A stretch of 24,803 nt of DNA from Candidatus Brocadiaceae bacterium (GTDB lineage Bacteria; Planctomycetota; Brocadiia; Brocadiales; Brocadiaceae): assembly GCA_015661205.1 (NCBI GenBank), contig JACVXV010000025.1:1-24803 (forward strand), read 5' to 3'. Numbering within the stretch: position 1 is the first letter of the stretch; the number at the start of each line of letters is the position of its first letter. Shown in pieces: positions 1-21,486 of this stretch. A program made the position numbers and the translations under genes. The notes under the pieces were generated by a model. It saw only the letters and a list, made by a program, of their open reading frames with translations, did not search any database and was not told the DNA's origin.

Positions 1-108
1 CTCTTATGCCTAAAATAAACCCTGGGGTCTGGGGCAAAGCCCCATCCTTTAGTAGCTTATTTTAAATTTGAAAATTCCAATTCACGGTGAACCAACACAG
101 AACAGTCC

Positions 109-834
109 ATGCCCGACGGCGGGATAATCAAATTGTCCGCTGAAAACGTTACCGTCGATGCCGAAAGTAACGTCCCCATAATGCAGGGGAAATACGTTAA
201 AATAACGGTTGCCGATACGGGCGTGGGCATTCCGGAACAACACCTCACCAAGATATTCGACCCCTATTTTACCACGAAAGAAGGCGGAAGCGGGCTGGGG
301 CTTGCCGTGGTGTATTCCGTTATTAAAAAACACGCCGGCTACCTTTCCGTGGAGTCGAAGGCGGGCGTTGGAACCATGTTCTATATCTATCTTCCGGCGT
401 CAAACGAAGAAGCTATTCCCACAAAGTCCATTGACAACAAACCCATCTTCGGGAAGGGAAGAATCCTGATTATGGACGACGAAGAACTTATCAGAGACGT
501 ATGCGGAAGGATGTTGGCCAAATTGGGATATGAGGTAGGGTATGCCCTGGATGGGCAAGAGGCCATTGATTTATACAAGAAAGAAAAAGACGCCGGACAT
601 CCCTTCAACGCGATCATTATGGACCTGACAATTCCCGGAGGAATGGGAGGAAAAGAGGCCATTAAGAAACTCCACGAGATTGACCCGAAGGTGAAGGCCA
701 TCGTTTCCAGCGGCTACTCCGAAGACGCAGCAATGTCCGATTTCGGAAAATCGGGATTTAAGGCCGTCATTGCAAAACCCTACCGAATCACCGATCTCAG
801 CGAAACCGTGCATCAGGTATTGAGTGAGGGGTAA
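109..834 (+). CDS. 5'-truncated hybrid sensor kinase remnant: distal part of HATPase_c fused to a CheY-like receiver domain
   Basis: The ORF opens right after an in-frame TGA (85-87). The first residues, MPDGGIIKLSAEN, correspond to the segment that normally follows the N-box of GHKL kinases. G1 (VADTGVGI) and G2 (GGSGLGLAV) boxes are present. No DHp/H-box or N-box is encoded upstream in any frame. Receiver motifs: ILIMDDEE, IIMDLTIPGGMGG, IAKP. Confidence 0.75.
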   Translation: MPDGGIIKLSAENVTVDAESNVPIMQGKYVKITVADTGVGIPEQHLTKIFDPYFTTKEGGSGLGLAVVYSVIKKHAGYLSVESKAGVGTMFYIYLPASNEEAIPTKSIDNKPIFGKGRILIMDDEELIRDVCGRMLAKLGYEVGYALDGQEAIDLYKKEKDAGHPFNAIIMDLTIPGGMGGKEAIKKLHEIDPKVKAIVSSGYSEDAAMSDFGKSGFKAVIAKPYRITDLSETVHQVLSEG

Positions 835-1396: not shown

Positions 1397-1813
1397 ATGG
1401 ATAACAACACAAAAAATCAAAATGAAGCCCTGTCCTGGTTTCAAGAAGGATTGAGGTTTGAATGCCGGCGGTGCGGCAGGTGTTGCAGGGGCGAACCTGG
1501 CGCCGTGTGGGTTAACAATAGTGAGATGGGCGATATCGCCTCTTTTCTCGGTATTACCCAGGCTGCATTTGCAAAAAACTATGTGAAGAGTATTAACGGC
1601 CGGTTAAGTCTCTTGGAACATGGAAACGGCGTGTGTGTGATGTACGACGGGGGCTGCAAGATATACGGCGTCAGGCCGGGACAGTGCAGGTCATTCCCCT
1701 TCTGGACGTCAAATCTGGAGAACCGTGAGGCTTGGGAAGAGTTGCAAAATACCTGTCCGGGATCCGGCAAAGGGAGGTTACATACAACGGCAGACATAAC
1801 GCCGTTGCTGTAG
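1397..1813 (+). CDS. YkgJ-family cysteine-cluster protein (CxxCxxCC, putative Zn/Fe-S binding, PF03692-like)
   Basis: CRRCGRCCRG motif near the N-terminus, and a distal GCKIYGVRPGQCRSFPFW motif typical of the family. ATG start; 138 aa. Confidence 0.8.
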   Translation: MDNNTKNQNEALSWFQEGLRFECRRCGRCCRGEPGAVWVNNSEMGDIASFLGITQAAFAKNYVKSINGRLSLLEHGNGVCVMYDGGCKIYGVRPGQCRSFPFWTSNLENREAWEELQNTCPGSGKGRLHTTADITPLL

Positions 1814-1951: not shown

Positions 1952-2386
1952 ATGAAATACGTTTCAGAACTAAACCTTGACGCCGGGTTGACGGCCATAT
2001 ACCGGCAACTGGAAAATGAACTGGCGCAATTAAATCCCGGTTGTAATGGCTGCGGGACGTGCTGCAATTTCGGCGACTTTGACCACGTCCTTTATGCGAG
2101 CGGCGTAGAAATTGATTTTATCGTCAAGCACGCACACGTCCCCGACTTTGCCGTTTCAGACAATATATGCCCCTTCCTGAAAGACAACAACTGCTCTATT
2201 CGTGAGTTTCGAGCGCTGGGATGCCGTGTCTTTTACTGCAATCCCCACTATCAGGAAGTTTCTCATGAAGTGTACGAAAAATATTACCGGATGATAAAGG
2301 AACTCTACAACAAACACGCCATACCCTGGAAATATCAACCATTCCTCAACCAATTGAAAGAAGCGCCACGTAAACGGTTACCGTGA
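1952..2386 (+). CDS. YkgJ-family cysteine-cluster protein, second paralog
   Basis: CNGCGTCCNF (CxxCxxCC) plus distal CPFLKDNNCSIREFRALGCRVFYC. 144 aa, ATG start. Confidence 0.8.
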   Translation: MKYVSELNLDAGLTAIYRQLENELAQLNPGCNGCGTCCNFGDFDHVLYASGVEIDFIVKHAHVPDFAVSDNICPFLKDNNCSIREFRALGCRVFYCNPHYQEVSHEVYEKYYRMIKELYNKHAIPWKYQPFLNQLKEAPRKRLP

Positions 2387-2624: not shown

Positions 2625-5486
2625 ATGAACCCCCTGGAACGAGTAAAAGCTACGTTACGATGTGAGAGGACTGACCGCATCCCGGTTATTCCCGAGGTGG
2701 CTGCGGTTACCGCAAGGTTACGGGGTAAAAACGTCAGAGAGTACGTAAGCAACGGTGAAGTCCTTGCCGAATGCCAACTGGCCGCACAGGAGACATTCCA
2801 GTATGACGCGGTAATTGCCTTTGCAGACCTTTGCGTCGAGGCTGAGGCCATTGGCTGTGAACTGGTATTTCCTGCCGATAATTATCCACACGTTAAACGG
2901 CCTGCCATACAATCCATCAATGGACTGAGCGCCCTTTCTGTGCCAAACCCCCTCAAAGACGGCAGGATGCCGGAACTCATCAAGGCAGTGCATATCCTGA
3001 AGGATAAATCTCTCGGCAGGATACCGGTTGTAGCCCACGCGCTTGGCCCCCTTACGATTGCCTCCCGTATTATGGATCTAGAGAAAATGCTCTATATGAT
3101 TGTTGATGAGCCGGATAATTTCAAGAAACTGCTGGCTTTTACCCTGGAGGTAGCCCTTGTTTTCATAAGGCATCTGTTAGCGGCAGGCGCTGATTGTATT
3201 ATTATGTTTAATCCTTCGGCCTCTCCCGCCGTGCTCCCCGCAAAAATATTCAAGGAATTTGAACTTCCAAACCTGAAAAAGATATTTTCTTTTATCAAGG
3301 AATTCAATCCTGAGGCCATTACTTGGTATAGCGTGGCCGGGGCAGTTCAGGACATTATCAAAGAATTGGAAGACGTAAACATCGACATTATGACCATCGA
3401 TTATCTCGTTCCGCTGGACGTCGCTTTCGGTATTTCCTCTTCCCTGTGTTTTAACGGCAACATAAAATCCATCTCCTTTGTCAATGAAAAGCCGAAGGAG
3501 ATTTTTTCCCAATCAACGGCGCTTTTACAAACCTCGCTGGAACGTGGAAGATTTATCCTGGGTTCCGGGTGTGAGGTGCCACCGAACGCCAGGCTGGATA
3601 CTATTCAGGCGCTTGTCAATGCATCCATCGACGTCTCAAGGAATTTTAAGGTGTACGGGAATGGGGTAGAAGCAACGAAGTGCGTTTCGATTTTTCCCTT
3701 TCAAAGGAAGGTTCACGTGCATGAAGGGATCGATGTTATTGAGGCTGCCGCCCAGGCCGGTGTTCAAATCCACAATTTGTGCAATAAGGCCGGGGTATGC
3801 GGTTCCTGTATTATTCAAGTGGGGAAGGGGGTTACCGGTGATTACTCAAGAAAGGAGTCGATAGTTTTAACTCCTGAGCAAAAAGAGAAAAATTACCGGT
3901 TTGCCTGTAAGGTTAAAGTGGCGTCCGATATGGAAATTTTCGTTCCGCGGGAATCGAGAATAAAAAATGAATATCGGGTTTACCAGAAAGACCATGCTCA
4001 GGAATCAATTGGCGAGCAGTACGGCTTAAATCCCTCTATCTGTGCAATCAAGATGCCGCATAGGCAAAAAACCGATGATAAGCACACGGATTTAGAAATA
4101 ATTCAGAAGGCTATCGGCAATCACACCGAATTTTTCCACAGTGAGCTTAGAAAATTGCCCGATATGGTAAGACATGACAAGGAATTCTATTGTATCATTG
4201 ACACAGAAAAGGGAAGGGCGCTTGACCTGTGCCATTCCCGGGAAATACTGGGCGTGGCTGTGGATATCGGAACAACCACCATCGCAATATACCTCCATGA
4301 CCTGGAGACCGGAAAGATAATCACCTCCGGCTCTCTTCTGAACCCGCAGTTTCAATTTGGCGACAATATTATGACCAGGGCGGAACGGTATCTCTGTGGG
4401 ACAGCAGAGCGGACGGAACTCCGGAACAGTCTTATCAAAGGAATTAACACCCTTCTCTTGAAAATTGCCCAGGACAAGGGTATCTCTTACAGCCATATCT
4501 ATAAAATGGTTGTCGTTGGGAACTCGGTTATGCACCATATATTCCTGGACATGGATTTGCAGTATCTGGTCAGGGCGCCTTTTACCCCGGTCTTTTCAAG
4601 CGCATACACGTACGTCAACAAGGATAAGGGCGGGGGGCAGAAGCTTACTATGAACGAAAATGGGTTGGTTGTGTGTCCTCCTCTCCTGAATGGCTTTGTG
4701 GGGTCAGACGCGGTTGCCGGGATACTGGCACCCAGCCTTTACCGGTCGGAAGAACCCGTTCTCTTGGTGGACCTTGGCACAAATGGGGAGATCGTCCTGG
4801 GTAATAAAGAAAAAATCCTCGTCACTTCGGCTGCCGCGGGGCCGGCGTTTGAGCGATTTTCCGCTATGTCCGGGAAACTTGCGGCCTCCGGCGCTATTTA
4901 CCGCGTTGACATAGACGAAGATTTTCACGTTATCTACAAGACCTTTGACAACAAAAAACCAACGGGTTTGTGCGGAAGCGCCATTGTTGATACCATTGCC
5001 GCGTTTTTGCGTTTGGGTATCATAGACAGGCGGGGACGTTTTGTCAGAAACCCACGCTGCAACAGCCTGAGAGACAGCGGGTATATCCTGGTTCCTCGGC
5101 AGGACACGGCAATCTTTCAACCCGTGGTGATAACTGCCCGTGACATAGAAGAGGTTCAAAAGGCCAAAGGGGGAATAATGGCGGGGATTGCTATTATCAT
5201 GAGGGAATACGGAATTACCCCCAAAGGGCTTGGCAAGGTGGTTTTAACCGGCGGATTCGGCATGAATATCAACGTGGGCAATGCCATCCGCATTGGTTTG
5301 ATCCCGGAAGTTCCCGTGGAAAAGGTCGGTTTTATTTCAAATGCCGCCGGGGTTGGCGCCCGATTGTATTTGCTTTATAAGGATGCGGTAAGGGACGTGG
5401 AAGAGATTGCCGGAAAGATCAGACATATCAACGTGGCAAACGACGCTGCATTTAACAACATTTTCATAGATGCCATGCTGTTTTGA
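2625..5486 (+). CDS. fusion protein: UroD/MtaA-family methyltransferase-like barrel + [2Fe-2S] ferredoxin domain + RACo-type ASKHA ATPase (corrinoid reductive activator-like)
   Basis: One uninterrupted 953-aa ORF. The N-terminal ~345 aa show the UroD/MtaA pattern (RIPVIPEV, FADLCVEAEAIGC, ILGSGCEVPPNA). C386-x5-C392-x2-C395-x32-C428 (CNKAGVCGSC...FAC) matches RACo [2Fe-2S] spacing. ASKHA motifs: LGVAVDIGTTT (aa 542-), LLVDLGTNGEIVLG, TSAAAGPAFE. Confidence 0.85.
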   Translation: MNPLERVKATLRCERTDRIPVIPEVAAVTARLRGKNVREYVSNGEVLAECQLAAQETFQYDAVIAFADLCVEAEAIGCELVFPADNYPHVKRPAIQSINGLSALSVPNPLKDGRMPELIKAVHILKDKSLGRIPVVAHALGPLTIASRIMDLEKMLYMIVDEPDNFKKLLAFTLEVALVFIRHLLAAGADCIIMFNPSASPAVLPAKIFKEFELPNLKKIFSFIKEFNPEAITWYSVAGAVQDIIKELEDVNIDIMTIDYLVPLDVAFGISSSLCFNGNIKSISFVNEKPKEIFSQSTALLQTSLERGRFILGSGCEVPPNARLDTIQALVNASIDVSRNFKVYGNGVEATKCVSIFPFQRKVHVHEGIDVIEAAAQAGVQIHNLCNKAGVCGSCIIQVGKGVTGDYSRKESIVLTPEQKEKNYRFACKVKVASDMEIFVPRESRIKNEYRVYQKDHAQESIGEQYGLNPSICAIKMPHRQKTDDKHTDLEIIQKAIGNHTEFFHSELRKLPDMVRHDKEFYCIIDTEKGRALDLCHSREILGVAVDIGTTTIAIYLHDLETGKIITSGSLLNPQFQFGDNIMTRAERYLCGTAERTELRNSLIKGINTLLLKIAQDKGISYSHIYKMVVVGNSVMHHIFLDMDLQYLVRAPFTPVFSSAYTYVNKDKGGGQKLTMNENGLVVCPPLLNGFVGSDAVAGILAPSLYRSEEPVLLVDLGTNGEIVLGNKEKILVTSAAAGPAFERFSAMSGKLAASGAIYRVDIDEDFHVIYKTFDNKKPTGLCGSAIVDTIAAFLRLGIIDRRGRFVRNPRCNSLRDSGYILVPRQDTAIFQPVVITARDIEEVQKAKGGIMAGIAIIMREYGITPKGLGKVVLTGGFGMNINVGNAIRIGLIPEVPVEKVGFISNAAGVGARLYLLYKDAVRDVEEIAGKIRHINVANDAAFNNIFIDAMLF

Positions 5487-5531: not shown

Positions 5532-5837
5532 TTAATTCTTTTGGCTGATAGTAACCAACATTTGGATTACCGTGCCGATCCTTTGGTTTAGCGGCCCTAT
5601 CTCTCCTTTTAACTGCCCAATTTCGTTCTTCATTTCGCTTCGCAATTGCCCAATCTCGCCTCTTACACTCCCGATATCCGCATCAATTTTTTGCACCAGA
5701 TATCTGAAATCTTCCTCCTGACGTTTTTTCAGTTCACCTATTTGGGTTGTTATTTCTTCCGTGCGGTCATTGACTACCTGGTAGATTAAATCTAGTGTCA
5801 CCTTTTTTATAGCTGACGTAAAAAATTCTTTTACCAT
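5532..5837 (-). CDS. hypothetical coiled-coil protein (about 101 aa)
   Basis: The preferred start is the internal ATG at 5837 (MVKEFF...), preceded by AGGAGGG about 9 nt upstream on the minus strand. The sequence has heptad-like repeats (EIGQLRSE / EIGQLKGE / EIGPLNQ). No family recognised. Confidence 0.55.
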   Translation of the reverse strand: MVKEFFTSAIKKVTLDLIYQVVNDRTEEITTQIGELKKRQEEDFRYLVQKIDADIGSVRGEIGQLRSEMKNEIGQLKGEIGPLNQRIGTVIQMLVTISQKN

Positions 5838-5947
5838 GGGGAAATACCCTCCTGTAAACATGAAGTTTTTAGCAATACATTTAGCGTATTTTAGCAAGTC
5901 ATTGGTAAATGTACAAGAATTATCTCTCCGGAATCAGGCCATTTTCC

Positions 5948-5977
5948 TTGACACCTATATAACCAATGGGTTATATT
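5948..5977 (+). promoter_or_regulatory. putative sigma70-type promoter of the toxin-antitoxin operon, possibly giving a leaderless mRNA
   Basis: TTGACA (5948-5953), an 18-nt spacer, then TATATT (5972-5977). The toxin ATG at 5983 lies about 6 nt after the -10. The spacer contains a short inverted repeat, ATAACC-n4-GGTTAT. Confidence 0.4.
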
Positions 5978-5982
5978 CGAAT

Positions 5983-6288
5983 ATGGTAATCAAATTACTA
6001 AGGCAGGTTAGTGCTTATATAGATACATTACCCAAAGAGCAGCGTGCCATAATATATGCTGTCTTGGAAGATATAAAACAATACGGACTGCAAGCCCCAT
6101 TGGTATCCATGAGGCAGATTAAAGGTAAATTATGGGAGGTCAAGATTTCTCAGATTAGAATATTCTATGTCGTTATCGAGAAAAACACCATGGTTCTCCT
6201 CCATGTCTATAAAAAGCAGAGCCAAAGGGCGCCGCAACATGAAATTGAAACTGCGCTCCGTCGTATGAAGGATGTACTTGAAAATTAA
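5983..6288 (+). CDS. type II toxin, RelE/ParE superfamily, Gp49/HigB-like (PF05973-like)
   Basis: The pattern LPKEQRAIIYAVLEDIKQYGL...GKLWEVKISQIRIFYVVIEKNTMVLLHVYKKQSQRAPQHEIETA matches the Gp49-like toxin consensus (G.LyElR...yRi.Y....ivll..f.KK.qk.P..ei..A). The start is chosen at the internal ATG (M50 of the track ORF). Confidence 0.8.
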   Translation: MVIKLLRQVSAYIDTLPKEQRAIIYAVLEDIKQYGLQAPLVSMRQIKGKLWEVKISQIRIFYVVIEKNTMVLLHVYKKQSQRAPQHEIETALRRMKDVLEN

Positions 6289-6307
6289 AAAGAAGGGGAT
6301 TGCTTCT

Positions 6308-6640
6308 ATGAAAACGCATGCCAACAGGGACGATATTTATCACCTGAAAGATACTATTGACAAACATGAAAAAGACCCTGAATTTAAAATCCTGCTGGAC
6401 AAAGCCAGATTAAGGGTTGCGATTGCAAGACAAATTAAGATAGCCAGAGAAGAAGCAGGACTCTCACAATCAGCGCTCGCAGACGCTCTCGGCATAAGCC
6501 AGCCCATGATAGGCCGTCTTGAGGGATTAAAAGACTATCGCCTGCCCAGTATTGAATTACTGACAAAAATTGCCTCTATAACAAAAAAGAAGCTGGTAGT
6601 AAATCAGCCGGGGTTTCACCTGGAATTGACATGTATGTAG
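6308..6640 (+). CDS. XRE-family helix-turn-helix antitoxin (HigA-like)
   Basis: The HTH segment is LSQSALADALGISQPMIGRLEG. The ATG at 6308 is preceded by GAAGGGGA. It lies 19 nt after the toxin stop, giving a toxin-first (HigBA) order. Confidence 0.75.
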   Translation: MKTHANRDDIYHLKDTIDKHEKDPEFKILLDKARLRVAIARQIKIAREEAGLSQSALADALGISQPMIGRLEGLKDYRLPSIELLTKIASITKKKLVVNQPGFHLELTCM

Positions 6641-8894: not shown

Positions 8895-8917
8895 CCATCA
8901 GGGCTGAAGCCCTGAGC
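8895..8917. repeat. 23-nt GC hairpin element, copy 2
   Basis: Identical to 1903-1925. It abuts and overlaps by 1 nt the TAG stop (8917-8919, minus strand) of the large radical SAM gene. Confidence 0.85.
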
Positions 8918-11829
8918 TACGGGGCTAATCGCTCCACGCTGCACGCAAGGCATTGGCGGTCTTCAAGCGGTTGGCCGAAAAGAAAGGTCTCGTTGACGCT
9001 GTCGCCACAGCAAATGCACTTTTCATGTTTTTGCAGCAAGGGGTATCTGCCATAATATCCCAGGGCTTCCATGTAGGTACAAACAAACTCACGCCTTTTC
9101 CCAACGCCATAACAGATTTCCAGAAAAGCCTGGAGGTCAAAACGTGCCGCCACGGCCATTATAATGGAAAACCCCGCTTCCGGCACCTGCGATGCGCCGG
9201 TTTTACCGACCTTTGCATATACGACTACGGCGTTTTTTTTGCTTTTTGTATCGACTTTAAAAATCGTCTGGCCGTTTCTTTTTAATAACGTATACTTCAC
9301 GTAACTGCCCCGCAGGTACTCTTCCAGTTTCTGCTCTACTAAAGGCCGGGTAAATTCCTTGCCGAACTGAAAACGGTACAACACGTATTTAACCTCTTGC
9401 CCATCGACCGGATTTAAGATAAATTCCTTTACCTTGAATCCCTGACATAGCGTCTGTATCGCGCTATGTTTTTGGGACAGCGACGCGCTGCTTAACAATT
9501 CCAGAGACCTGTCATTTGAAAAGAAGGTCAGATTATACACGTTGACGCCGTAAATAAAATCCGCCGGGGTTTTCTCGCCATTGAATTCACTAAGGTAACC
9601 GGACACGTTCTTATAATAGGGAACGATTTCCGGCATGGCCATCATAATCGCACGCGCCAGGACTACACCGACAAACTGCTTCGGAGCCAGCCGAAGGGAT
9701 GCGTCAATCTCAACAACGACGCTGAGGGTAATCGTGTTTTGCTTGCTCCGGGCAATCTTATGAAGTTCTTCCATGAAAAAAGGCGGTTGCATCTTGTGCT
9801 GCGTGAGGTTTTTCCTATGGTCCGCGGTCGGGCACGCGCCGCAGCCCAGGCATTTTACGTCTACGTGCGGGCGCCCCAGGCAGTATTCACGTTCGGCAAA
9901 ATCAAGAGAACGCTGATATTCTTCCCATAAATATCGCTTCGGAACGCCCGTATCGATATCATCCCAGGGGAAAGCACACTGTTCCCCTTTTTCGCTAAAA
10001 TAGTCTTCTTCGGTTAACGCCAAATCGGCCAGGTAGCCACGCCAGTTCCTGAGCGCCTGCTTGGGAATGACGTTGTAATAAAGTATCCCATCCTCAATTG
10101 ACGAACGGATAAGCGCCGGCGTGAGCCGTCTGTCGCCCTTAGCGAGCAACTGCGTCAACCACATTTCTTCAAATGAAGCGCTTTCCCTGAATTCCATACC
10201 ACCAGACTTGCAGGCGCGCTCAATCGACTTTTTTATGTTTTTTATGTCCCCAAGTGACGTAAGGCAGGCATGAAACTGCAATGGGGTGTGTGGTGGATAA
10301 TACAGAGGAGTCAGACTGAAAATAATGCGCACGTGGCTGTCTGACATACTCTTTAAACTTTCCAGGCTCTTGACAAACCTTTCAAATTCAACAAAATCCT
10401 CACCCTGCTCCAACCCCGTGGCGATTAAAAATATCTTCAGTTCCCTGATGCCCCTTTTAAACAGCGATTCACAGGCCTTGTAAATCTGCACTTCCGTCAG
10501 GTTTTTGTGGAGACGGCGGCGTAACCGGTCACTAATGCCTTCCATCCCGCAACTTACCGTAGTCTTTCCAATCGTTTGCTGCACTTCCGCAAGGAAACTG
10601 TCGCCGGCGAGCAGGTCGAATCGCTGGCTTTTCAGGCTTACGTTGTCCATTTCACGGTAAAGCGACAATATCATGGGATACAGTTCCGCGTGGGTATTAA
10701 AATTGAAGCTTAGGAGGTTCACCGTATCAAGCCCCTGGCACGCCTTTGCCGTTTTCAGGCTTTCAGAAATCCTTGACAGAGAACGCTCACGATAGGGTTT
10801 GCGCTCCCAGCTTTCCGCACAAAAGGCGCAAAAACAAGGGCATCCGGTACTGATCTGCACGCTTCCCAAACCCAGGCTTTCCGTATCGTACCACACGGGG
10901 CATGACTCCATGGCGCGAACCTTGTCTAGCTCGTGTACCACGGCGCTTTTTACCGGAAAGGACACGTATGTCTCTTTTGGTGTGATTTCCCGCAATTCGC
11001 TTTTTCCCTTCAAAGCAACTCCCACAACCCCTTCACTTTCAGCAAGAGGCAACCCTTCCACTGCTATTGGGAGGGGAGCGCCGATTGGTGTGGAAACTTC
11101 ATATCGGTGTTCATATTTATCCGGCTCGTAAAATCCATCCACCTTCCCGTGGCAGGCATTTAGGATTTCTTTTTTGCTCCAGCCCTGTAACCTGCCTAGT
11201 TTAACCATCTCCAGAAATTGTTTGATGGAATATTCCCCTTCGCCAATAAATACGGCATCCACAAGCCCGTAATGCCCATCCGCCCCTTGTTCTTCCAGGG
11301 TACCATGCAGGACAGAGGTAACTCCGGAGCTGGCGCCCCCCAGGATGATAAAAGGAACGTCCTCGCGAAGCATACGCTCCGTTTTAAAAAGGGGAATTCC
11401 GGAGAGATGTAGAAGCTTTGGGAGGTTAAGCAATTCCAACACAAAGGAGTTGCTGATCCCCAGGACGTGAAATGCGGTGGGCGGCTCTTTAGTAGTCGTT
11501 CCCACCCAAGGCGGTATACGTGAAGCAGCCATGAGATCAATGTCCCTGGGCGGCGGCAAAAAGGCGAAGTCGGTAAAGACGCCTTCAACTTCCCTGGCAA
11601 TCTGGGCTATGAGAGAATGAGAGATGGAGGTCGATACGTCACGATAGGTGGATAACCTGCATATAAGAAATCGCAGTTCTGCCTGAGAAAAAAGGGCAGG
11701 GTCCATGGTATTGGGTTCTCCCCCTTTTAACCATAGGCCGGACAAGGAAAGCAAGTAGTAATTTTGGTCGTACCATTGTCTGATTTCCTGTGAAGATTTT
11801 AAACAGTCGTAGGGGTTGATGTTGAGCAT
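8917..11829 (-). CDS. B12-binding-domain-type radical SAM protein (TIGR03960-like) fused to a radical-SAM-linked DUF2344/TIGR03936-like C-terminal region
   Basis: CxxxCxxC appears in STGCPCFCAFCAES. The N-terminal pattern (FLICRLSTYRDVSTSISHSL..., FHVLGISNSFVLELLNLPKLLHLSGIPL, PFIILGG...DAVFIGEGEYSIKQFLEMV) matches the TIGR03960 layout as I recall it. The last ~270 aa are only loosely DUF2344-like and end in a Cys-rich tail, CICCGD...CLAC. An alternative start is M42 (11706). Confidence 0.75.
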   Translation of the reverse strand: MLNINPYDCLKSSQEIRQWYDQNYYLLSLSGLWLKGGEPNTMDPALFSQAELRFLICRLSTYRDVSTSISHSLIAQIAREVEGVFTDFAFLPPPRDIDLMAASRIPPWVGTTTKEPPTAFHVLGISNSFVLELLNLPKLLHLSGIPLFKTERMLREDVPFIILGGASSGVTSVLHGTLEEQGADGHYGLVDAVFIGEGEYSIKQFLEMVKLGRLQGWSKKEILNACHGKVDGFYEPDKYEHRYEVSTPIGAPLPIAVEGLPLAESEGVVGVALKGKSELREITPKETYVSFPVKSAVVHELDKVRAMESCPVWYDTESLGLGSVQISTGCPCFCAFCAESWERKPYRERSLSRISESLKTAKACQGLDTVNLLSFNFNTHAELYPMILSLYREMDNVSLKSQRFDLLAGDSFLAEVQQTIGKTTVSCGMEGISDRLRRRLHKNLTEVQIYKACESLFKRGIRELKIFLIATGLEQGEDFVEFERFVKSLESLKSMSDSHVRIIFSLTPLYYPPHTPLQFHACLTSLGDIKNIKKSIERACKSGGMEFRESASFEEMWLTQLLAKGDRRLTPALIRSSIEDGILYYNVIPKQALRNWRGYLADLALTEEDYFSEKGEQCAFPWDDIDTGVPKRYLWEEYQRSLDFAEREYCLGRPHVDVKCLGCGACPTADHRKNLTQHKMQPPFFMEELHKIARSKQNTITLSVVVEIDASLRLAPKQFVGVVLARAIMMAMPEIVPYYKNVSGYLSEFNGEKTPADFIYGVNVYNLTFFSNDRSLELLSSASLSQKHSAIQTLCQGFKVKEFILNPVDGQEVKYVLYRFQFGKEFTRPLVEQKLEEYLRGSYVKYTLLKRNGQTIFKVDTKSKKNAVVVYAKVGKTGASQVPEAGFSIIMAVAARFDLQAFLEICYGVGKRREFVCTYMEALGYYGRYPLLQKHEKCICCGDSVNETFLFGQPLEDRQCLACSVERLAP

Positions 11830-12638
11830 GGTTGTTGAAAAACTTTCTGAATAATTTCAAGCATTTCTGCGTGTACGCCGCCGGAACCGGCAATAACGTT
11901 GCCGGATTTTAAAAAAAGATTGCCGCCTGTAAAATCAGTGACCACCCCACCTGCCTCTTTGACGATAAGGGCGCCTGCTGCTACGTCCCATGGGGAAAGA
12001 CCGATTTCAAAAAAACCACCAAAGACACCATCAGCCGTGTACGCAAGGTCGAGACAGGCCGACCCGCACCTTCTAATGCCGGTGGCGCGCATAAACAACC
12101 CCCGAAACGCCTTCAGGTAGGTATCAATGACGTCTTTTATCCTGAAGGGAAAACCGGTAGCGATAAGTGACGCACTCAAAACACCGGTGCTTGAAACTTG
12201 CATCCGGCATCCATTTTTGAATGCGCCCATATCTTTTACCGCCGAATAGACGATTTCCCTGAGCGGCTCATAAATAAGCCCCACCGCCAGCTCCCCTTCT
12301 ATTTCCAAGGCAATGGAGATGGCGAAACTCGGCAGGCCGTGGATATAATTCAGGGTGCCGTCCAGCGGGTCGATGATCCATCGGAAAGGGGATGAATTCC
12401 TTTCCGGCGTAGATTCCTCGGCAAGGATGTCGTGATCCTTGAAATGAGAGCGAACGAGGTTTTTGATGATTGCCTCGGATTTTTTATCGACATCGGTAAC
12501 GTAATCATTCTTTGCCTTTTCGTTAATCATGGAAGGACTCACCTTGCCAAAGTGTTCTTTAAGAACAACTCCGGCCTGAAGCGCGGCCTTTTGTGCAATT
12601 TCAAGAAACGGTTTTAAATTGTTTCGATTCATTGGCAT
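11799..12638 (-). CDS. inositol monophosphatase family protein (SuhB/ImpA-like)
   Basis: WIIDPLDGTLNYIHGLP (the DPxDGT metal motif), EESTPE, and WDVAAGALIVKEAGG. It overlaps the downstream radical SAM start by 31 nt. Confidence 0.85.
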   Translation of the reverse strand: MPMNRNNLKPFLEIAQKAALQAGVVLKEHFGKVSPSMINEKAKNDYVTDVDKKSEAIIKNLVRSHFKDHDILAEESTPERNSSPFRWIIDPLDGTLNYIHGLPSFAISIALEIEGELAVGLIYEPLREIVYSAVKDMGAFKNGCRMQVSSTGVLSASLIATGFPFRIKDVIDTYLKAFRGLFMRATGIRRCGSACLDLAYTADGVFGGFFEIGLSPWDVAAGALIVKEAGGVVTDFTGGNLFLKSGNVIAGSGGVHAEMLEIIQKVFQQPCSTSTPTTV

Positions 12639-12931
12639 TTTAGCGGTTTTTGTTGTTTTCTAAACAAACACATAAATAATCAGGTTGTATGTGTACTGGA
12701 ATTATTACTTGTGCCACTCCATCCCCATACCCCCCGCCAGCGGGAGACAGTGGCCAGCAACGCCTTCGGTCACTTTTATACCGTTGTGAGCCACAAACAG
12801 GCACGGGCTAACCGTGAATACAAAGAAAACCTACAAATGGCTCATTTATTATTGAAACTTACAAAACGGTGAAACTACAACGTGAAAAAGGGATTGAGTT
12901 TGTGAAACAAACGAGGTCTTTGACGAAGGCG

Positions 12932-14176
12932 CTACACCTTGCCTAAGATGATCGCGGCGTTATGGCCGCCAAAGCCAAATGAATTGGAAAGCACGGTCGT
13001 GACTTTCTTTTCACGGGCGACGTTGGGGACAAAATCCAAACCTGTACATTCGGGGTCCGGTGTTTCATAATTAATCGTCGGCGGGATAATTCCTTCATTG
13101 ATTACAAAAGCGCATATAATTGCCTCAACGCTTCCCGCCGCTCCGAGTTGATGACCAAGCATCGACTTTGTGGAACTAACGGGAATCTTTGACGCATATT
13201 GCCCAAAAACATTTTTTATCGCAATGACCTCAATAGAATCGCCAATAGGGGTCGAAGTTGCATGGGCATTAATGTATTGTATGTCTTCGGGGTTACACCC
13301 GGCATCCTTCATGGCGCTTTTCATACATCGTATAGCCCCGTCACCGCTGCCCTCCGGCGCGGCAATGTGGTACGCATCCGTATTAAGCCCATAGCCCAAA
13401 ACCTCCGCATAAATATACGCCCCACGCTTCTTTGCAAATTCCATGTCTTCAATTACAAGAATGCCTGCCCCTTCTGATATAACAAACCCGTCACGGTCTT
13501 TGTCAAAAGGGCGGCTGGCTTTTTGCGGGGCGTCATTACGGGTGGAAAGCGCCTTCATGGCGCTGAACCCTCCAACGCCCAAGGGAGTAATTACCGCTTC
13601 CGAGCTCCCAACCACCATTGCATCCGCTTCACCTCGCTGAACCATACGCGTGGCCTCCCCGATGGCGTTGCCGCCCGTAGTACATGCAGATACCAGGGCG
13701 TAATTAGGCCCCTTTAATCCGAACCGGATCGCTACCTGTGCCGAAGCGGCGTTTACCATCAATTTTGGCACCATCAGGGGCGATATCCTTGATGGACCTT
13801 TGTTCATAAGATTACCGTGTTGGGTTTCGAGCTCCTGCAAACCACCCATGCCAGAACCAATTAAAACGCCTATCCTCGTTGGATCATAACCGCACGTACT
13901 TAGTTGAGCGTCCTCCACGGCACGGATAGCAGCGGCAAGGGCAAACTGCGCAAAACGATCCAGGCGGCGCGCCTCTTTAACGTCAAACCACTTGGCCGGA
14001 TCAAAATCACTGGCCTCGCCTCCAAAATGAACGCCATGCAATGAGCTGTCGAAGGAGGCTATAGGCTTGATACCGCTCTTTCCCTCACACAATGAAGTCC
14101 AAATCTGCCGCTTTTCAATCCCTAAAGAGGTAATAGCGCCAACACCGGTAATAACAACCCTTCTCCGTTCCAGCAT
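12932..14176 (-). CDS. fabF: 3-oxoacyl-ACP synthase II (KAS II)
   Basis: Active-site Cys in ALVSACTTGGNAIG. His residues in NAHATSTPIGD and MLGHQLGAAG. C-terminal SNSFGFGGHNA. 414 aa. The ATG directly abuts the acpP stop. Confidence 0.93.
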   Translation of the reverse strand: MLERRRVVITGVGAITSLGIEKRQIWTSLCEGKSGIKPIASFDSSLHGVHFGGEASDFDPAKWFDVKEARRLDRFAQFALAAAIRAVEDAQLSTCGYDPTRIGVLIGSGMGGLQELETQHGNLMNKGPSRISPLMVPKLMVNAASAQVAIRFGLKGPNYALVSACTTGGNAIGEATRMVQRGEADAMVVGSSEAVITPLGVGGFSAMKALSTRNDAPQKASRPFDKDRDGFVISEGAGILVIEDMEFAKKRGAYIYAEVLGYGLNTDAYHIAAPEGSGDGAIRCMKSAMKDAGCNPEDIQYINAHATSTPIGDSIEVIAIKNVFGQYASKIPVSSTKSMLGHQLGAAGSVEAIICAFVINEGIIPPTINYETPDPECTGLDFVPNVAREKKVTTVLSNSFGFGGHNAAIILGKV

Positions 14177-14410
14177 TTATTTATGTTCCTCAATATATTT
14201 AATCGCGTCTCCCACGGTACGTATCTTTTCCGCATCTTCGTCCGGAATGTTCATATCAAACGCATCCTCAAATTCCATAATTAACTCCACCGTATCAAGG
14301 GAATCCGCTCCGAGATCGTTAATAAATGAAGTTTCTTTTGCAATTTGCTCTGTTTTTACCCCAAGCTGCTTGGTAATAATCTCTTTTACTTTTTGTTCAA
14401 TTGCTGACAC
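14177..14410 (-). CDS. acpP: acyl carrier protein
   Basis: 77 aa with the phosphopantetheine site [19 protein letters not shown] start preceded by AGGAGG. Confidence 0.93.
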
Positions 14411-14438
14411 GCTCTTTCCTCCTTTTTCATGTTTAAAA

Positions 14439-15386
14439 TTAGTTTGAACTCATACTATTTTCAAAAGCCTCTACCGTATCAATATTTTTGATTTTTTGCG
14501 CAGGGTCGATTCTTTTCATAAGCCCTGACAATGTTTTTCCGGGTCCGATTTCATAGAATTGATTAAAACCGTCCCGAATAAGCGTGTGAATCGACTGGTG
14601 CCATCTCACGGGGCTATTGAGCTGCCTGGCCAAAGAGGTCTTTATTTCGTCCGGTTCACTCACGTATCCCGCATGGACGTTCGCTACTATCGGAATACTT
14701 GGTTTGGAAAAGGGCGTCAAATCCAGTTCCTTTGAAAGCTTGCTACCCGCCGGGGACATCAATTCGGAGTGGAACGCCCCATCCACCTTGAGAGGCACGA
14801 CCATCCTTGCCCCGCGTTCTTTTGCCAGTAGAGACGTCTTTTCCAGCACCGTCTTTTCACCCGAAATAACCACCTGCCCCGGACTATTGTAATTAGCCGC
14901 GCAAACAACACCATGCACGGCCATTTCCTTGCAAATTTGTTCTACCTTTTCGTCGTCTAACCCTATAATGGATACCATCCCCCCCTGCGTGGAGTCACAC
15001 GCCTCTTGCATAAACACCCCCCGCTTATAGACAAGCCTTACGGCATCGGCAAAGGACAGGGAACCGGCCGATACGTGCGCCGTGTATTCTCCCAAACTAA
15101 GCCCTGCCACGGCAAGGGACGCATCTTTCCACAACGAGGAGTTCTTCCTCAAGACTTCCAGAATTGCGATGCTGGTGACCAATATCGCGGGCTGGCACAT
15201 TGAAGTTTTGTTCAACTCCTCCTGGCTTTTAGAAAAGCAGAGCGCGGGAACGTCAAAACCCAGAACTTCACTTGCCCGATCAAATACCTCCTGCGACTCT
15301 TTAAATTTTACGTAAAAATCCTTTCCCATCCCCACATATTGTGTTCCCTGTCCGGGGAAAAGGAGCGCAGCTTTTTTGTTTACCAT
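14439..15386 (-). CDS. fabD: malonyl-CoA:ACP transacylase
   Basis: [12 protein letters not shown], nucleophile motif GLSLGEYTA, and [10 protein letters not shown]. The start overlaps the fabH stop. Confidence 0.92.
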
Positions 15387-16369
15387 CTAATAACCGAAAC
15401 CCCCCAGGTAAGTCCACCGCCAATCGCTACCAGCAGGAGTATATCGCCTTTGTTAAGGCGTCCTGCTTTTCTAGCCTCATCCATTGCGATGGGAATAGAG
15501 GCAGAAGAGGTATTACCGTATTTATCGATATTAACAAATGTCTTATCCATCGGCAGGTCCAGCCGATCCATAACCGCCTCAATAATTCTTAAATTACTCT
15601 GATGGTATATAATCAGCCCGATGTCCGTCAGTTCGATGTTATTTTTTACCGCTGTTTCCCTGACCATGTTCGTTACGATATTTACGGCCGATTTAAATAC
15701 TTCCCTGCCTTTAAACTGTATATAATGCATTCGCTGTTGAACTGACTCTAAAGATGCAGGGTTCTTTGCCCCCCCGGCCTGCATAAAAAGCGAGTCCCAT
15801 TGAGAGCCGTCGGCATGCAGGGTCGTAGAGAGGATTTCGTGCTTCGTTTGGCTTTTTTGCACAACAACGGCGCCTGCGCCGTCACCGAACAAAATGCACG
15901 TGGTGCGGTCCGTATAATCAGTAACCTTGGACAAACATTCGGCGCCCACGACCAAAACGGTTCCCACCGTGCCCGAATTCACAAAACTTTGACCGACTGA
16001 AAGCGCGTAAACAAACCCGCTGCAAGCGGCAAGAATGTCAAATGCACTTGCCCTCGTCGCCCCGATCTTATGCTGAACCTGGCACGAGGTAGAAGGGAAA
16101 AAGTAGTCAGGTGTTATGGTCGAGGTAATAATCATATCAATATCTTTCGGTGTAACCCCGGCGTCTTCCATCGCCATATTCGAGGCTTGTACCGCAAGAT
16201 CTGACGTTACCATGCCGTTTTCAACGATACGGCGTTCTCTAATGCCTGTTCGCTGGATAATCCAGTCATCGGTCGTATCAACCATCTTCTCTAAGTCATA
16301 ATTTGTCAGAACTTTACCGGGAAGATACGACCCTATGCCGGTAATAGACGCTCTTTGATTTTGTTCCAT
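15380..16369 (-). CDS. fabH: 3-oxoacyl-ACP synthase III (KAS III)
   Basis: Cys in AACSGFVYAL, His in YHQSN, Asn in YGNTSSASIP, and C-terminal GGGLTWG. Confidence 0.92.
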   Translation of the reverse strand: MEQNQRASITGIGSYLPGKVLTNYDLEKMVDTTDDWIIQRTGIRERRIVENGMVTSDLAVQASNMAMEDAGVTPKDIDMIITSTITPDYFFPSTSCQVQHKIGATRASAFDILAACSGFVYALSVGQSFVNSGTVGTVLVVGAECLSKVTDYTDRTTCILFGDGAGAVVVQKSQTKHEILSTTLHADGSQWDSLFMQAGGAKNPASLESVQQRMHYIQFKGREVFKSAVNIVTNMVRETAVKNNIELTDIGLIIYHQSNLRIIEAVMDRLDLPMDKTFVNIDKYGNTSSASIPIAMDEARKAGRLNKGDILLLVAIGGGLTWGVSVIRW

Positions 16370-16462
16370 TTATAAGCAATAAACCTTGATAACCGTGAGG
16401 AACTTAAACCCTCTATTGGAGACATATCTCCGCCATTGCGCCAAGTTCTGAAAAAATAAAGA

Positions 16463-17479: not shown

Positions 17480-17483
17480 AGAT

Positions 17484-17711
17484 TTATCTTTCGACGGAGA
17501 CAACCTGCTCACCACGGTAATAACCGCAGTTATGACAAATCGTATGGGGTTGGTTAACCTGCTTGCAATGGGTGCAGATATAACGTTTAGAACGGACGCC
17601 GGTACCTCTTCCTAAATTCGCATCAAGGGGAATGATGGGCGGGGTTAATTTATCGTGGGTGCGTCTTTTACGGGTTCTCGCGTTGGAAAACCTTCTCTTT
17701 GGATTAGGCAT
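17484..17711 (-). CDS. rpmF: 50S ribosomal protein L32 (long form with CxxC...CxxC zinc ribbon)
   Basis: MPNPKRRFSNARTRKRRTHDKL N-terminus, CTHC...CHNCGYYRG, an RBS GAGGTGA upstream, and the canonical position in front of plsX. Confidence 0.88.
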   Translation of the reverse strand: MPNPKRRFSNARTRKRRTHDKLTPPIIPLDANLGRGTGVRSKRYICTHCKQVNQPHTICHNCGYYRGEQVVSVER

Positions 17712-17758
17712 GTATCACCTCTGTAAAATTTCTATAATATGTATATTCTAAAACTTTA

Positions 17759-17787
17759 ATGTTATATAGATAAAACAACATTGTCAA
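17759..17787 (-). promoter_or_regulatory. putative promoter of the rpmF-plsX-fab operon
   Basis: Read on the minus strand: TTGACA (17787-17782), a 17-nt spacer, then TAACAT (17764-17759), about 45 nt upstream of the rpmF ATG. The -10 is weak. Confidence 0.3.
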
Positions 17788-17846
17788 GCAAAAACAGGAC
17801 AAGTCCATACATTTTATTGTTTTTTGCCGAAAATCCACTCGTAGAT

Positions 17847-17901: not shown

Positions 17902-17909
17902 ATACGAAA

Positions 17910-21474: not shown

Positions 21475-21486
21475 TTAAAAATGTCC

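Follow-up and report, generated by a model that had tools for sequence, protein, structure and literature searches.

A polypeptide joining a zinc-site-less MtaA-like methyltransferase domain to a complete RACo-type activator, and the association of its gene cassette with signal transduction proteins

In the 24,803-nucleotide stretch of Candidatus Brocadiaceae DNA analyzed here (the window), one conserved polypeptide combines a predicted corrinoid methyltransferase, MtaA-like and without a zinc site, with a complete RACo-type activator whose activity is likewise predicted from sequence and a structural model. Comparison of homologous loci indicates that the fusion arose once, from two neighboring genes of a widespread cassette encoding a corrinoid protein (CP), a URO-D methyltransferase and a RACo activator. 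The same comparison indicates that a signal transduction protein is nearly always encoded together with this cassette, parts of which are sometimes physically fused to such a protein. The fusion protein is deposited as MBF8275710.1 (“2Fe-2S ferredoxin-type protein”) from a Candidatus Brocadiaceae MAG, and no published description of the fusion was found in the literature.

An earlier, sequence-only reading of the window had described a single 953-aa reading frame without internal stops in which a URO-D/MtaA barrel is joined to a complete RACo activator. The frame was confirmed, and the composition found strong support in profile HMMs, in matches to PDB entries and in an AlphaFold model. The URO-D, Fer2, Raco_middle and RACo_C_ter profiles were all placed on the protein (Table 1). 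The N-terminal domain scored 224.9 bits against PF01208 (Pfam gathering cut-off 23.9), and PDB sequence searches matched it to MtaA (4ay7, 2.5e-23) and the C-terminal part to RACo (3zyy, 5e-88, approximately 30% identity, residues 8-603 of the 605-aa query). The AlphaFold2 model (pLDDT 86.3) superimposed in Foldseek on 4ay7 with a TM-score of 0.90 and an rmsd of 2.2 Å and on 3zyy_Y with a TM-score of 0.85; UroD structures gave approximately 0.8. The URO-D domain resembled the MtaA/CmuA HMMs more closely than HemE, and it remained below all NCBIfam cut-offs: 149.4 bits for MtaA/CmuA (TIGR01463, cut-off 235.4), 132.2 for MtaA (NF040654, cut-off 400) and 100 for MtbA (NF041608, cut-off 600).

Table 1. 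Features of the fusion gene and of its upstream region in the window.
Feature	Position (nt)	Strand	Evidence or remark
Hybrid histidine kinase 3' remnant: half HATPase_c + receiver	93..834	+	
YkgJ/CxxCxxCC cysteine-cluster protein	1397..1813	+	Pfam; conserved context
Second, weaker CxxCxxCC protein	1952..2386	+	conserved with the first in the Brocadiaceae clade
Fusion ORF, 953 aa	2625..5486	+	ATG to stop, 0 internal stops
URO-D / MtaA-like TIM-barrel methyltransferase domain, aa 4-333	2634..3623	+	Pfam PF01208, E 1.9e-66
W234-Y-S236-V-A238-G; S-V-A at the position of the MtaA zinc motif H-x-C	3324..3341	+	invariant in the fused family
C316 (GSGCE), third zinc-ligand position, kept	3570..3572	+	invariant in all URO-D relatives examined
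[2Fe-2S] ferredoxin domain, aa 361-432	3705..3920	+	Pfam Fer2, 1e-07; 3zyy alignment
Variable linker, aa 433-541	3921..4247	+	poorly conserved, lower pLDDT
RACo middle domain, aa 542-707	4248..4745	+	Pfam PF17651 (Raco_middle), 5e-45
Phosphate-1 motif VDIGTTT, aa 546-552	4260-4280	+	within RACo middle domain
RACo C-terminal ASKHA domain, aa 710-952	4752..5480	+	Pfam PF14574 (RACo_C_ter), 3e-73
VDLGTNGE, aa 715-722	4767-4790	+	within ASKHA domain
SAAAGPAFE, aa 735-743	4827-4853	+	within ASKHA domain

Residues 359-952 share the full layout of RACo, AcsV and bacterial-type Ram/RACE proteins (3zyy, 4c1n), that is, a four-Cys [2Fe-2S] ferredoxin followed by middle and ASKHA domains with nucleotide-binding motifs; the fusion differs from RACo and AcsV by the additional 345-aa N-terminal methyltransferase. 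The RACo-like spacing of the ferredoxin cysteines (C386-x5-C392-x2-C395-x32-C428) had been read correctly, and all four residues were invariant among 49 homologues. In the ATPase part DxGTT, DxGTNGE and GPAFE are all intact, and the motifs VDIGTTT and SAAAGPAFE, reported earlier, were recovered at residues 546-552 and 735-743. The top NCBIfam match of the protein was AcsV (NF040756, 375.8 bits, cut-off 800). RamA (TIGR04270, 108.8 bits, cut-off 500) matched the ASKHA part alone, and its cluster domain is of the [4Fe-4S] type, whereas that of the fusion is a [2Fe-2S] ferredoxin.

The N-terminal half has the TIM-barrel fold of MtaA, MtbA and CmuA (4ay7) and keeps the distal C316 and the VEAEA motif, but it carries S236 and A238 in place of the zinc-binding His and first Cys. 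The sequence-only reading was right about the loss of these two ligands and the retention of C316; its register (Y-S-V) was off by one, since H-I-C of MtaA falls on S236-V237-A238 in the HMMER alignment. The S-V-A replacement was invariant in the 49 fused homologues, none of which has the H-x-C...C zinc signature, and the middle zinc Cys was missing in 70/70 sequences of the cassette clade, while the outgroup retains H-I-C. With WYSVAG, the window sequence fits the clade pattern W-x-[SHNQ]-[IV]-[AT]-G, and it nested within the fused clade in a neighbor-joining tree calculated without bootstrap support. The loss of the H-x-C ligands is evidence against a CoM- or thiol-type acceptor, as had been argued from the sequence, and CoM metabolism is not expected in the fusion-carrying bacteria. 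The URO-D-fold enzymes CdmB (chloromethane:corrinoid methyltransferase) and MtvB (Moorella O-demethylase) likewise have no functional zinc site (PMC13222342). Since zinc-free MTI enzymes of this fold are documented, the zinc loss is less odd than was first assumed.

Approximately 49 full-length homologues, down to 31% identity, have the same architecture, which is carried by 25 species-level MAGs; of the RACo-like clusters at 50% identity, numbering more than 5000, about 10 contain it. The architecture is therefore rare, not unique. The 90%-identity cluster of the fusion has 17 members with several independent 953-aa copies, and together with the 49 homologues this rules out an assembly artefact joining two genes. 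The window's fusion gene is under purifying selection, with dN/dS values of 0.10-0.21 over its full length, 0.31 or less in every part and 0.17-0.21 within its clade, and the URO-D domain is the best-conserved section of the protein. Record titles place the carriers in groundwater, at hydrothermal vents, in the deep water of lakes, and in anaerobic sediments or reactors; most hosts of the cassette are Nitrospinota.

Genomic context was determined with our own ORF calling and phmmer seeds, and the following counts refer to informative loci outside the window's own clade. A 220-aa B12-binding corrinoid protein is encoded directly upstream of the fusion at 26/26 loci, so that the corrinoid partner, which had been considered unknown, can be named at the level of the family. 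Its DxHxxG...SxL...GG motif is canonical, and it is nearest to the MtbC/MtaC/MtgC corrinoid proteins. Directly downstream of the fusion a PAS-HisKA-HATPase kinase is encoded (25/25), often with overlapping stop and start codons, and in most Nitrospinota loci the gene of an NtrC/AtoC-type sigma-54 regulator directly precedes the B12 gene. The Nitrospinota cassette genes are flanked by regulator and kinase with stop and start codons overlapping.

Unfused relatives, with 37-48% identity in the URO-D domain, show the order B12, URO-D, RACo and then a signaling protein, which is a GAF-like kinase, a GAF kinase plus sigma-54 regulator, a PAS hybrid kinase or a GGDEF protein. Because the URO-D and RACo genes adjoin in one cassette when unfused, the fusion is of the Rosetta-stone type, and this agrees with the functional coupling of methyltransferase and activator suggested earlier. 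B12::URO-D fusions (P0059, P0106, P0108) and Fer2::GAF-like::HisKA-HATPase in one reading frame (L053, L041) were also found, and with URO-D::RACo three pairwise fusions link the components. Variants without RACo retain B12, URO-D and kinase (L035, L046, L052, L061, L082, L083, L085), so that of the two partners the kinase is more constant than the activase. The PAS domain of the fused clade and the GAF-like domain of the unfused cassettes are unrelated (hhalign probability 0.6%); with a presumed reader domain that is not conserved, no single docking domain supports direct read-out. Methyltransferase, corrinoid-binding and, for MetH, reactivation modules on one chain have precedents in MetH, CmuA and MtsD/F/H. 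CmuA and MtsD/F/H join the methyltransferase to a B12 domain, whereas the fusion joins it to the activase, and the MetH reactivation module is of the SAM/flavodoxin-dependent type, whereas that of the fusion is an ASKHA ATPase.

The ties of the cassette to histidine kinases, sigma-54 regulators and GGDEF proteins point to signaling rather than, or besides, catabolic methyl transfer. We hypothesize, and give it an even chance, that the fusion protein sets and maintains the state of a corrinoid-protein switch whose output goes to signal transduction. A low-potential electron would enter the RACo half via the [2Fe-2S] cluster, and ATP would be spent on reducing Co(II) to Co(I) on the 220-aa His-on (DxHxxG) corrinoid protein, while the tethered URO-D half would move a methyl group to or from the cobalt of that protein. 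As the thiol-activating zinc site is gone, the methyl group would most likely move in the MTI-like direction, with Co(I) receiving it from a non-thiol donor. Whether the cobalt is present as Co(II), Co(I) or CH3-Co(III) would be the signal, read by the adjacent PAS or GAF-like histidine kinase and passed to the sigma-54 regulator, or alternatively read by a GGDEF protein. With the fusion as “writer and repairer”, the switch would report methyl-donor availability, cellular redox or O2 status, or both, and in Nitrospinota genes for cyt bd-like oxidase and for cytochrome maturation may be among its targets. More tentatively, CP, URO-D and RACo together could constitute an unrecognized class of cofactor-based sensory input that drives histidine-kinase/sigma-54 and c-di-GMP signaling.

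To our knowledge, corrinoid methyltransferase systems have been treated as purely metabolic, and the accepted B12-based sensors are only light sensors and riboswitches. If the proposed switch is real, the oxidation and methylation state of cobalt would be regulated and reset with ATP, a new role for B12 chemistry, and the reductive activator would belong to a signaling cycle and not to the repair crew. It would also provide a candidate redox, O2 or methyl-donor sensor for uncultured Nitrospinota and anammox-related bacteria. In CarH/LitR and AerR the cofactor state of a B12 protein controls gene regulation, as proposed for the cassette. These proteins, however, sense light via Co-C photolysis and act on DNA-binding proteins, with no reset by methyltransferase and ATP-dependent reductase and no separate carrier feeding a histidine kinase. 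Also on a conservative reading, the three pairwise fusions are clean Rosetta-stone evidence of working partners, and the zinc-less S-V-A clade delimits a new subfamily of URO-D-fold methyltransferases that is open to testing and whose cognate corrinoid protein is known.

The main rival to the signaling role is a catabolic or assimilatory system, which we regard as unlikely. The URO-D half would then be the MTI that demethylates a substrate, for example a methyl halide or an aryl methyl ether, and loads the methyl group on the corrinoid protein, which the RACo half would keep active. A remote MTII would pass the methyl group to tetrahydrofolate, and the two-component system would be a local transcriptional regulator. 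The Wood-Ljungdahl pathway of Brocadiaceae could take up methyl-H4F, the domains are catalytically intact by motif, and kinases commonly adjoin catabolic genes, so that adjacency alone is no proof of signaling. By analogy with MtsA-type bifunctional methyltransferases, a single methyltransferase could support net methyl flux. Methyltransferase, corrinoid protein and activase are also the standard components of O-demethylase and chloromethane systems (PMC13222342; PMC10418091). The CdmB and MtvB systems, as described, resemble the cassette in that a small corrinoid protein and an activating enzyme that depends on ATP work with the methyltransferase, but MTII and activase are separate proteins there, the systems are catabolic, and no link to signaling is reported for them (PMC13222342). 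Type 1 mlp clusters, which comprise the paralogues Mlp2 and Mlp3 with a corrinoid protein and Ram/RACE, are, like the cassette, without an H4-folate methyltransferase and yet thought to be metabolic (Kountz & Balskus, PMC10418091). They are mostly from Firmicutes and unfused, with at least two distinct Mlp paralogues, and associate with sulfur, selenium and methionine genes, not with kinases (PMC10418091); judged on gene count, the cassette, with one URO-D gene at all loci examined, is not a type 1 mlp cluster. Against a catabolic role, neither a pterin-type MTII nor an MtaB/MttB-type gene was present in any Pfam-annotated neighborhood, each having one methyltransferase only. GGDEF proteins are moreover among the outputs, the ferredoxin domain is fused straight to a kinase in two loci, and the Nitrospinota genes overlap at their stop and start codons between regulator and kinase. 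The hosts are mostly Nitrospinota, among which we know of no methylotrophs.

It is improbable that the fusion protein is a general repair factor for corrinoid enzymes, with the RACo half reactivating CoFeSP or short MetH and the URO-D half acting as a docking or priming module. DUF4445 proteins do reactivate MetH in several bacteria (PMC5764234), DUF1638, which is tied to MetH reactivation, lies within one unfused cassette (L038), and the window copy has no adjacent corrinoid partner. AcsV is the top NCBIfam match (376 bits), but far under the 800-bit cut-off, and, unlike the genes of RACo and AcsV, the fusion is not beside CoFeSP/acs genes. No acs or metH gene was found near any locus, in the window or in relatives, where the cognate partner is a small MtaC/MtbC-like protein that adjoins in every informative case. 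The URO-D part is the most conserved of the protein.

B12-binding domains also serve as photoreceptors, as in CarH and AerR. The cassette might be a regenerable methylcobalamin light sensor in which light cleaves the Co-C bond, the fusion re-reduces and re-methylates the cobalt, and the kinase reports the photolysed state. Resetting such a sensor would need exactly a methyltransferase and an activase, and solved structures join B12-binding domains to GGDEF proteins (8j2y match). We nevertheless consider this quite improbable: the source environments are largely dark, the partner scored only 29-30 bits against the CarH NCBIfam model (cut-off 400), and its nearest relatives are methyltransferase corrinoid proteins.

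In the window itself the cassette is in pieces, dispersed by mobile elements, while the fusion gene is intact. As the sequence-only reading had stated, there is no B12-binding gene in the window, and no remnant of one was detected (Pfam; tblastn best E 0.76). Downstream of the fusion a HigB/HigA-like toxin-antitoxin pair takes the place of a signal transduction gene, and IS elements also surround the locus. The upstream kinase remnant matches, at approximately 96% identity, the end of a 931-aa kinase that is full-length in a sister genome (L119), and nt 1-92 of the window are unrelated to the kinase and contain in-frame stops; this hybrid kinase differs in type from the cassette kinases. Across the window's own clade, the fusion is without an adjacent B12 gene or dedicated kinase, and a sister lineage (L014/L120) carries a 1-nt frameshift in the fusion gene and also an IS630 insertion. 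An intact orthologue of the partner corrinoid protein (MBF8275030.1, 84% identity) bears the same organism label as the window and an accession near MBF8275710.1, and judging by label and number it is probably encoded on another contig of the same MAG. Given the broken cassette, the function of the fusion may differ or be decaying in this organism. That the gene is left over from a disrupted cassette and lacks working partners, as the truncated kinase, the toxin-antitoxin and IS elements and the sister-lineage frameshift might suggest, is very improbable in view of the intact 953-aa frame with every motif present, the clade dN/dS, the several independent full-length copies and the intact partner in the same accession series. 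At every Brocadiaceae-clade locus with upstream sequence, the gene of the YkgJ/CxxCxxCC protein directly precedes the fusion gene in the same orientation.

The fusion gene of the window is a single open reading frame that starts at ATG and runs for 953 codons to its stop, as the sequence-only reading had described, and profile searches placed both proposed halves clearly in their superfamilies, URO-D at the N-terminus and RACo/ASKHA in the remainder (see table). Matches to the NCBIfam models were below the cut-offs for both AcsV (aa 359-950, 376 bits vs. 800) and MtaA/CmuA (aa 1-334, 149 bits vs. 235), and neither half is therefore an orthologue of a named family. When compared with solved structures, the N-terminal domain ranked MtaA (4ay7, 2.5e-23) above true uroporphyrinogen decarboxylases, and the C-terminal part aligned end to end with RACo (3zyy, 5e-88). 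An AlphaFold2 model with 49 homologues as input (mean pLDDT 86.3, pTM 0.61) was matched by Foldseek to 3zyy_Y (TM 0.85) and to 4ay7 (TM 0.90, rmsd 2.2 Å). The previously quoted cysteine spacing and ASKHA motifs were recovered exactly. Nei-Gojobori dN/dS values for the fusion gene were 0.21, 0.17, and 0.10 when compared to the related loci L009, L014, and L005, respectively, and ≤0.31 for each of its three parts. The ASKHA phosphate-1, phosphate-2, and adenosine motifs are degenerate in 7 of the 49 fused representatives (proteins P0047, P0050-P0052, and P0054-P0056), so that activase function is dispensable in some lineages; WYSVAG, GSGCE, and the Fe-S cysteines are nonetheless invariant in these seven. 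Membership in the mlp cluster, AcsV, RamA, or CarH groups was rejected, as each failed on a defining feature.

An assembly artefact or chimeric reading frame was rejected on the basis of many independent full-length copies and deep homologues. The deposited protein (exact match MBF8275710.1, a "2Fe-2S ferredoxin-type protein") lies on a 25,135-bp contig of a Candidatus Brocadiaceae MAG, and its 90%-identity cluster holds 17 members from several assemblies, several of them of 953 aa. A word-indexed search returned 56 clusters with the identical four-domain architecture at identities down to 31%, named in the database only as "DUF4445" or "ASKHA domain-containing protein". HMMER searches of 1.84 billion 50%-identity representatives (E≤1e-30) yielded approximately 10 fused representatives among more than 5000 RACo-like matches. 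Scanning one genome per GTDB species gave 25 fused loci, all from MAGs, with hosts that are mostly Nitrospinota or labelled "Nitrospirae" and a few that carry Deltaproteobacteria, Planctomycetota, or Brocadiaceae labels. The four-domain architecture is rare, not unique. Neighbour joining of 83 URO-D domains (no support values) groups the fused family into one clade, sister to unfused S-I-A-type cassettes, and a protein at locus L035 that consists of URO-D only, its RACo part gone, nests within it. This topology indicates that the fusion arose once and that the RACo part was lost at least once. Four RACo homologues (P0378, P0484, P0509, and P0374) carry other N-terminal extensions of 230-370 aa; P0374, of 961 aa, is 30% identical to the window protein, with a match over query aa 69-952. 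Fusion of the RACo scaffold to other partners may thus have happened repeatedly.

In the HMMER alignment, the MtaA segment "vtvlHiCgn" lies over "itwySvAga", and the zinc His and Cys correspond to S236 and A238. The loss of H-x-C proposed from sequence thus stands, whereas the register, previously given as Y-S-V, was one residue off and reads S236-V237-A238. The distal Cys is kept as claimed, C316 occupying the third zinc-ligand position. S236, V237, A238, and C316 are invariant in the 49 fused homologues. Within the fusion protein's clade of the URO-D tree, the middle zinc Cys is replaced by Ala or Thr in 70/70 members (motif W-x-[S/H/N/Q/A]-[I/V/T]-[A/T]-G); H-I-C is kept by the outgroup. 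CdmB, a URO-D-fold chloromethane:corrinoid methyltransferase, is zinc-free and does not require zinc, and the same is stated for the Moorella O-demethylase (2026; PMC13222342). We agree with the earlier argument that loss of the site speaks against a thiol acceptor of the CoM type; it leaves room for an MTI-type reaction, the methylation of Co(I) by a methyl donor.

Gene contexts were counted with phmmer seeds over all ORFs of the fetched loci, using our own ORF calls and Pfam labels. Outside the window's clade, a B12-binding protein of ∼220 aa is encoded directly upstream of the fusion in 26/26 loci with enough upstream flank, and a PAS-HisKA-HATPase histidine kinase directly downstream in 25/25 with enough downstream flank, often with overlapping stop and start codons at the fusion-kinase junction. 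Most Nitrospinota loci have an NtrC/AtoC-type sigma-54 response regulator just before the B12 gene, and this adjacency defines a four-gene unit of regulator, corrinoid protein, fusion, and kinase. The corrinoid partner has the canonical DxHxxG...SxL...GG motif and is nearest to the methyltransferase corrinoid proteins MtbC/MtaC/MtgC, with scores under their cut-offs. Its cap carries an invariant, family-specific motif, K-C-T-x-E-x-F-x-L-L, which is missing from 1y80, the closest solved corrinoid protein. The invariant Cys of this motif may be a cobalt ligand, a methyl acceptor, or a component of a metal site shared between this protein and URO-D C316. Two neighbours recur beside the Nitrospinota cassette: a cyt bd-like oxidase together with c-type cytochromes (12 loci) and a Redoxin/FGE-sulfatase/CcmH/DsbD cluster (11 loci). 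Five of the 12 oxidase loci have sigma-54-like -24/-12 boxes 264-305 bp before the oxidase gene, including a perfect box, TGGCACGCTTGTTGCT, in L024, and a sigma-54 promoter search for a regulon revealed no consistent boxes beyond this gene. The oxidase neighbourhood and the boxes hint weakly at a regulon for respiration or redox. In Nitrospinota loci L016-L035 the gene before the sigma-54 regulator often encodes a second dCache kinase (∼585 aa).

Nitrospirota, Desulfobacterales, Acetobacterium sp., and Endomicrobiales encode stand-alone URO-D proteins that share 37-48% identity with the window N-domain. In the unfused cassette the B12 protein, URO-D, and RACo (Fer2 + Raco_middle + RACo_C_ter) are separate genes, followed by a signalling protein. 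Another 80 loci came from a metagenome scan; RACo or URO-D is followed by a kinase, a GGDEF protein, or a protein starting with the domain U181 in at least 25 distinct loci. U181 is a conserved domain of ∼150 aa without significant Pfam match (weak GAF matches, E∼0.01) and with invariant Q-Y, D, G-F, P, and Y-L..A-G-L, and it precedes HisKA/HATPase or GGDEF in unfused cassettes. One conserved "reader" domain across the kinases was rejected, U181 and the PAS domain of the fused clade being unrelated (hhalign probability 0.6%). RACo is absent, with B12, URO-D, and kinase kept, in L035, L046, L052, L061, L082, L083, and L085. At L053 and L041 the RACo ferredoxin domain lacks the ATPase and continues in frame into a GAF-like domain and kinase, a direct physical link between an electron-transfer module and a signalling protein. 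Three kinds of pairwise fusion thus tie the components together: URO-D::RACo, B12::URO-D (P0059, P0106, and P0108), and Fer2::GAF-like kinase. No second methyltransferase was found in the Pfam-annotated neighbourhoods of fused and unfused cassettes. One unfused cassette (L038) has a DUF1638 gene between URO-D and RACo. In Phaeobacter, genetic evidence links DUF1638 to the B12 reactivation of split MetH, and DUF4445 proteins have been implicated in reactivation of MetH (PMC5764234).

We propose that the cassette is a sensor in which the cobalt state of the corrinoid protein is the signal. The RACo half would use ATP to bring the cobalt of the partner from Co(II) to Co(I), the tethered URO-D half would methylate or demethylate the cobalt, and the PAS or GAF-like kinase, or the GGDEF protein, would read the cobalt state. 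What is sensed could be a methyl donor, redox/O2 status, or both; redox/O2 is considered because Co(I) is extremely sensitive to oxidants. The main rival is a catabolic function, with the methyltransferase carrying out MTI-type demethylation of a substrate. Linkage to a kinase has to be read with caution, as catabolic genes commonly adjoin regulators, and the sensor domains of the kinases are non-homologous between subfamilies, a further caveat on the sensory role. A lone methyltransferase can load or unload the corrinoid but, other than a bifunctional enzyme such as MtsA, gives no net methyl flux by itself. Taken with the variable output domains and the fusion of Fer2 to a kinase, this speaks for a switch rather than a pathway. 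On balance we give the sensory role roughly even chances and the catabolic one about half that.

Taken singly, the components are familiar: RACo/RACE activators, URO-D-fold corrinoid methyltransferases, and MtaC-like corrinoid proteins. Of described gene sets, the nearest are O-demethylase and Cdm systems, with MTI, corrinoid protein, MTII (the second methyltransferase), and a separate activase, and mlp clusters, which combine at least two Mlp paralogues with a corrinoid protein and Ram/RACE (PMC10418091). Neither these nor the DUF4445 proteins of MetH reactivation show such a fusion or a tie to kinases. A full-text literature search of non-exhaustive coverage found no published description of the fusion or of a kinase-linked corrinoid-methyltransferase-RACE cassette. 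Confirmation of the sensory role would make the cassette a new kind of signalling input.

Positions of the features discussed (nt unless marked aa; L numbers are fetched loci of relatives)
Feature	Locus	Position	Remark
Fusion gene	window	2625-5486 (+)	
URO-D	window fusion protein	aa 4-333	Pfam E 1.9e-66
Fer2 [2Fe-2S]	window fusion protein	aa 361-432	Pfam 1e-07
Raco_middle	window fusion protein	aa 542-707	Pfam 5e-45
RACo_C_ter (ASKHA domain)	window fusion protein	aa 710-952	Pfam 3e-73
Truncated hybrid kinase	window	93-834	same strand as fusion, upstream
Two YkgJ/CxxCxxCC cysteine-cluster proteins	window	1397-1813, 1952-2386	same strand, upstream
Gp49/HigB-like + HTH toxin-antitoxin pair	window	5836-6640	downstream of fusion
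Toxin-antitoxin modules (HigB/HigA-like, RHH/PIN, MNT/HEPN), IS630 transposase	window; L009; L119; L120	5836-6640; 851-1261; 1410-2032, 5131-5995; 9049-10300	
Hybrid kinase, 931 aa	L119	2178-4973	
Split fusion	L014; L120	294-3154; 10335-13195	
URO-D only	L035	1546-2583	
Corrinoid partner with cap motif	L001; L005; L007	9281-9943; 2780-3442; 9315-9977	
Sigma-54-like boxes (examples)	L024; L028	∼1126; ∼1485	Nitrospinota L016-L035
Signalling protein after RACo	L036		181-aa unannotated protein + GGDEF
Signalling protein after RACo	L037		PAS hybrid kinase
Signalling protein after RACo	L038		GAF kinase + sigma-54 regulator
U181	L036	9640-10185	
U181	L037, L040, L045-L048, L052, L053, L058-L061, L064, L065, L067-L069, L078		kinase N-termini
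RACo ferredoxin domain::GAF-like kinase	L053; L041	8146-9687; 1824-2315	
DUF1638 gene	L038	8017-8571	
fab + radical-SAM cluster	window	8917-19501 (-)	
Signalling genes	window	20542-24803 (-)	

In the Brocadiaceae clade the cassette is scattered. The window fusion is intact, behind YkgJ genes and toxin-antitoxin modules, and further downstream are a TPR protein, a 970-aa radical-SAM protein, and fatty-acid synthesis genes. The sequence-only reading had found no B12-binding gene here and called the partner unknown. The absence was borne out by Pfam searches of all ORFs ≥80 aa, which revealed no gene or remnant in the window, and tblastn of the window with four cassette B12 seeds gave no match (best E 0.76). 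At family level the partner can no longer be called unknown, since relatives have a dedicated one and a probable unlinked orthologue was identified: MBF8275030.1, a corrinoid protein of the cassette type that shares 84% identity with the L005 partner and is deposited under the label "[Candidatus Brocadiaceae bacterium]", on a 49-kb contig. Its accession number is close to those of the window proteins (MBF8275708 to MBF8275718), and from organism label and accession series we infer that it derives from the window's own MAG. The "missing" partner thus probably exists in this genome, unlinked to the fusion. No gene of the genome could be singled out as a dedicated kinase.

The sister genome L119 has, in order, a hybrid kinase, an MNT/HEPN toxin-antitoxin module, two YkgJ genes, and the fusion. 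From nt 93 to nt 896 the window matches the 3′ end of this kinase gene at 96% identity, and nt 1-92 are unrelated; the abrupt start of similarity shows that the kinase is cut off in the window assembly, by either a rearrangement or a chimeric contig end. That it represents the cassette kinase is unsupported: the full-length L119 version shares just 22% identity with the L005 cassette kinase, and its architecture (REC-REC-PAS-PAS-HATPase-REC) differs. The YkgJ pair lies directly upstream of the fusion in the window, L009, L010, and L119, the members of the clade with upstream sequence, and in no other clade; it may serve as an electron donor or partner peculiar to this clade, or be a mere hitch-hiker. 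The L120 locus begins with MetK, AdoHcyase, DUF1015, and the corrinoid protein; next come what is left of a PilJ-type kinase (a short N-terminal piece), an IS630 transposase, and the fusion, split into 564 + 342 aa. L014 and L120, two assemblies of a sister lineage, share an identical 1-nt deletion at ORF nt 1686, just past the phosphate-1 motif, that splits the fusion into 564 and about 342-371 aa. Toxin-antitoxin modules and IS630 surround the fusion in this clade and are the probable cause of the break-up of the cassette.

Elsewhere in the window, a minus-strand cluster contains plsX, fabH, fabD, fabF, an inositol monophosphatase, the 970-aa radical-SAM gene (Radical_SAM_N2 + Radical_SAM), and a second radical-SAM gene. 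It is conserved in L119 and presumably resembles the fab and radical-SAM clusters proposed for ladderane lipid synthesis. The last genes, also on the minus strand, encode a SAM hydroxide adenosyltransferase (SAM_HAT_N/C), an HD-GYP-type (HD_5) response regulator, and a dCache-HAMP hybrid kinase, and look like a signalling unit unrelated to the fusion.
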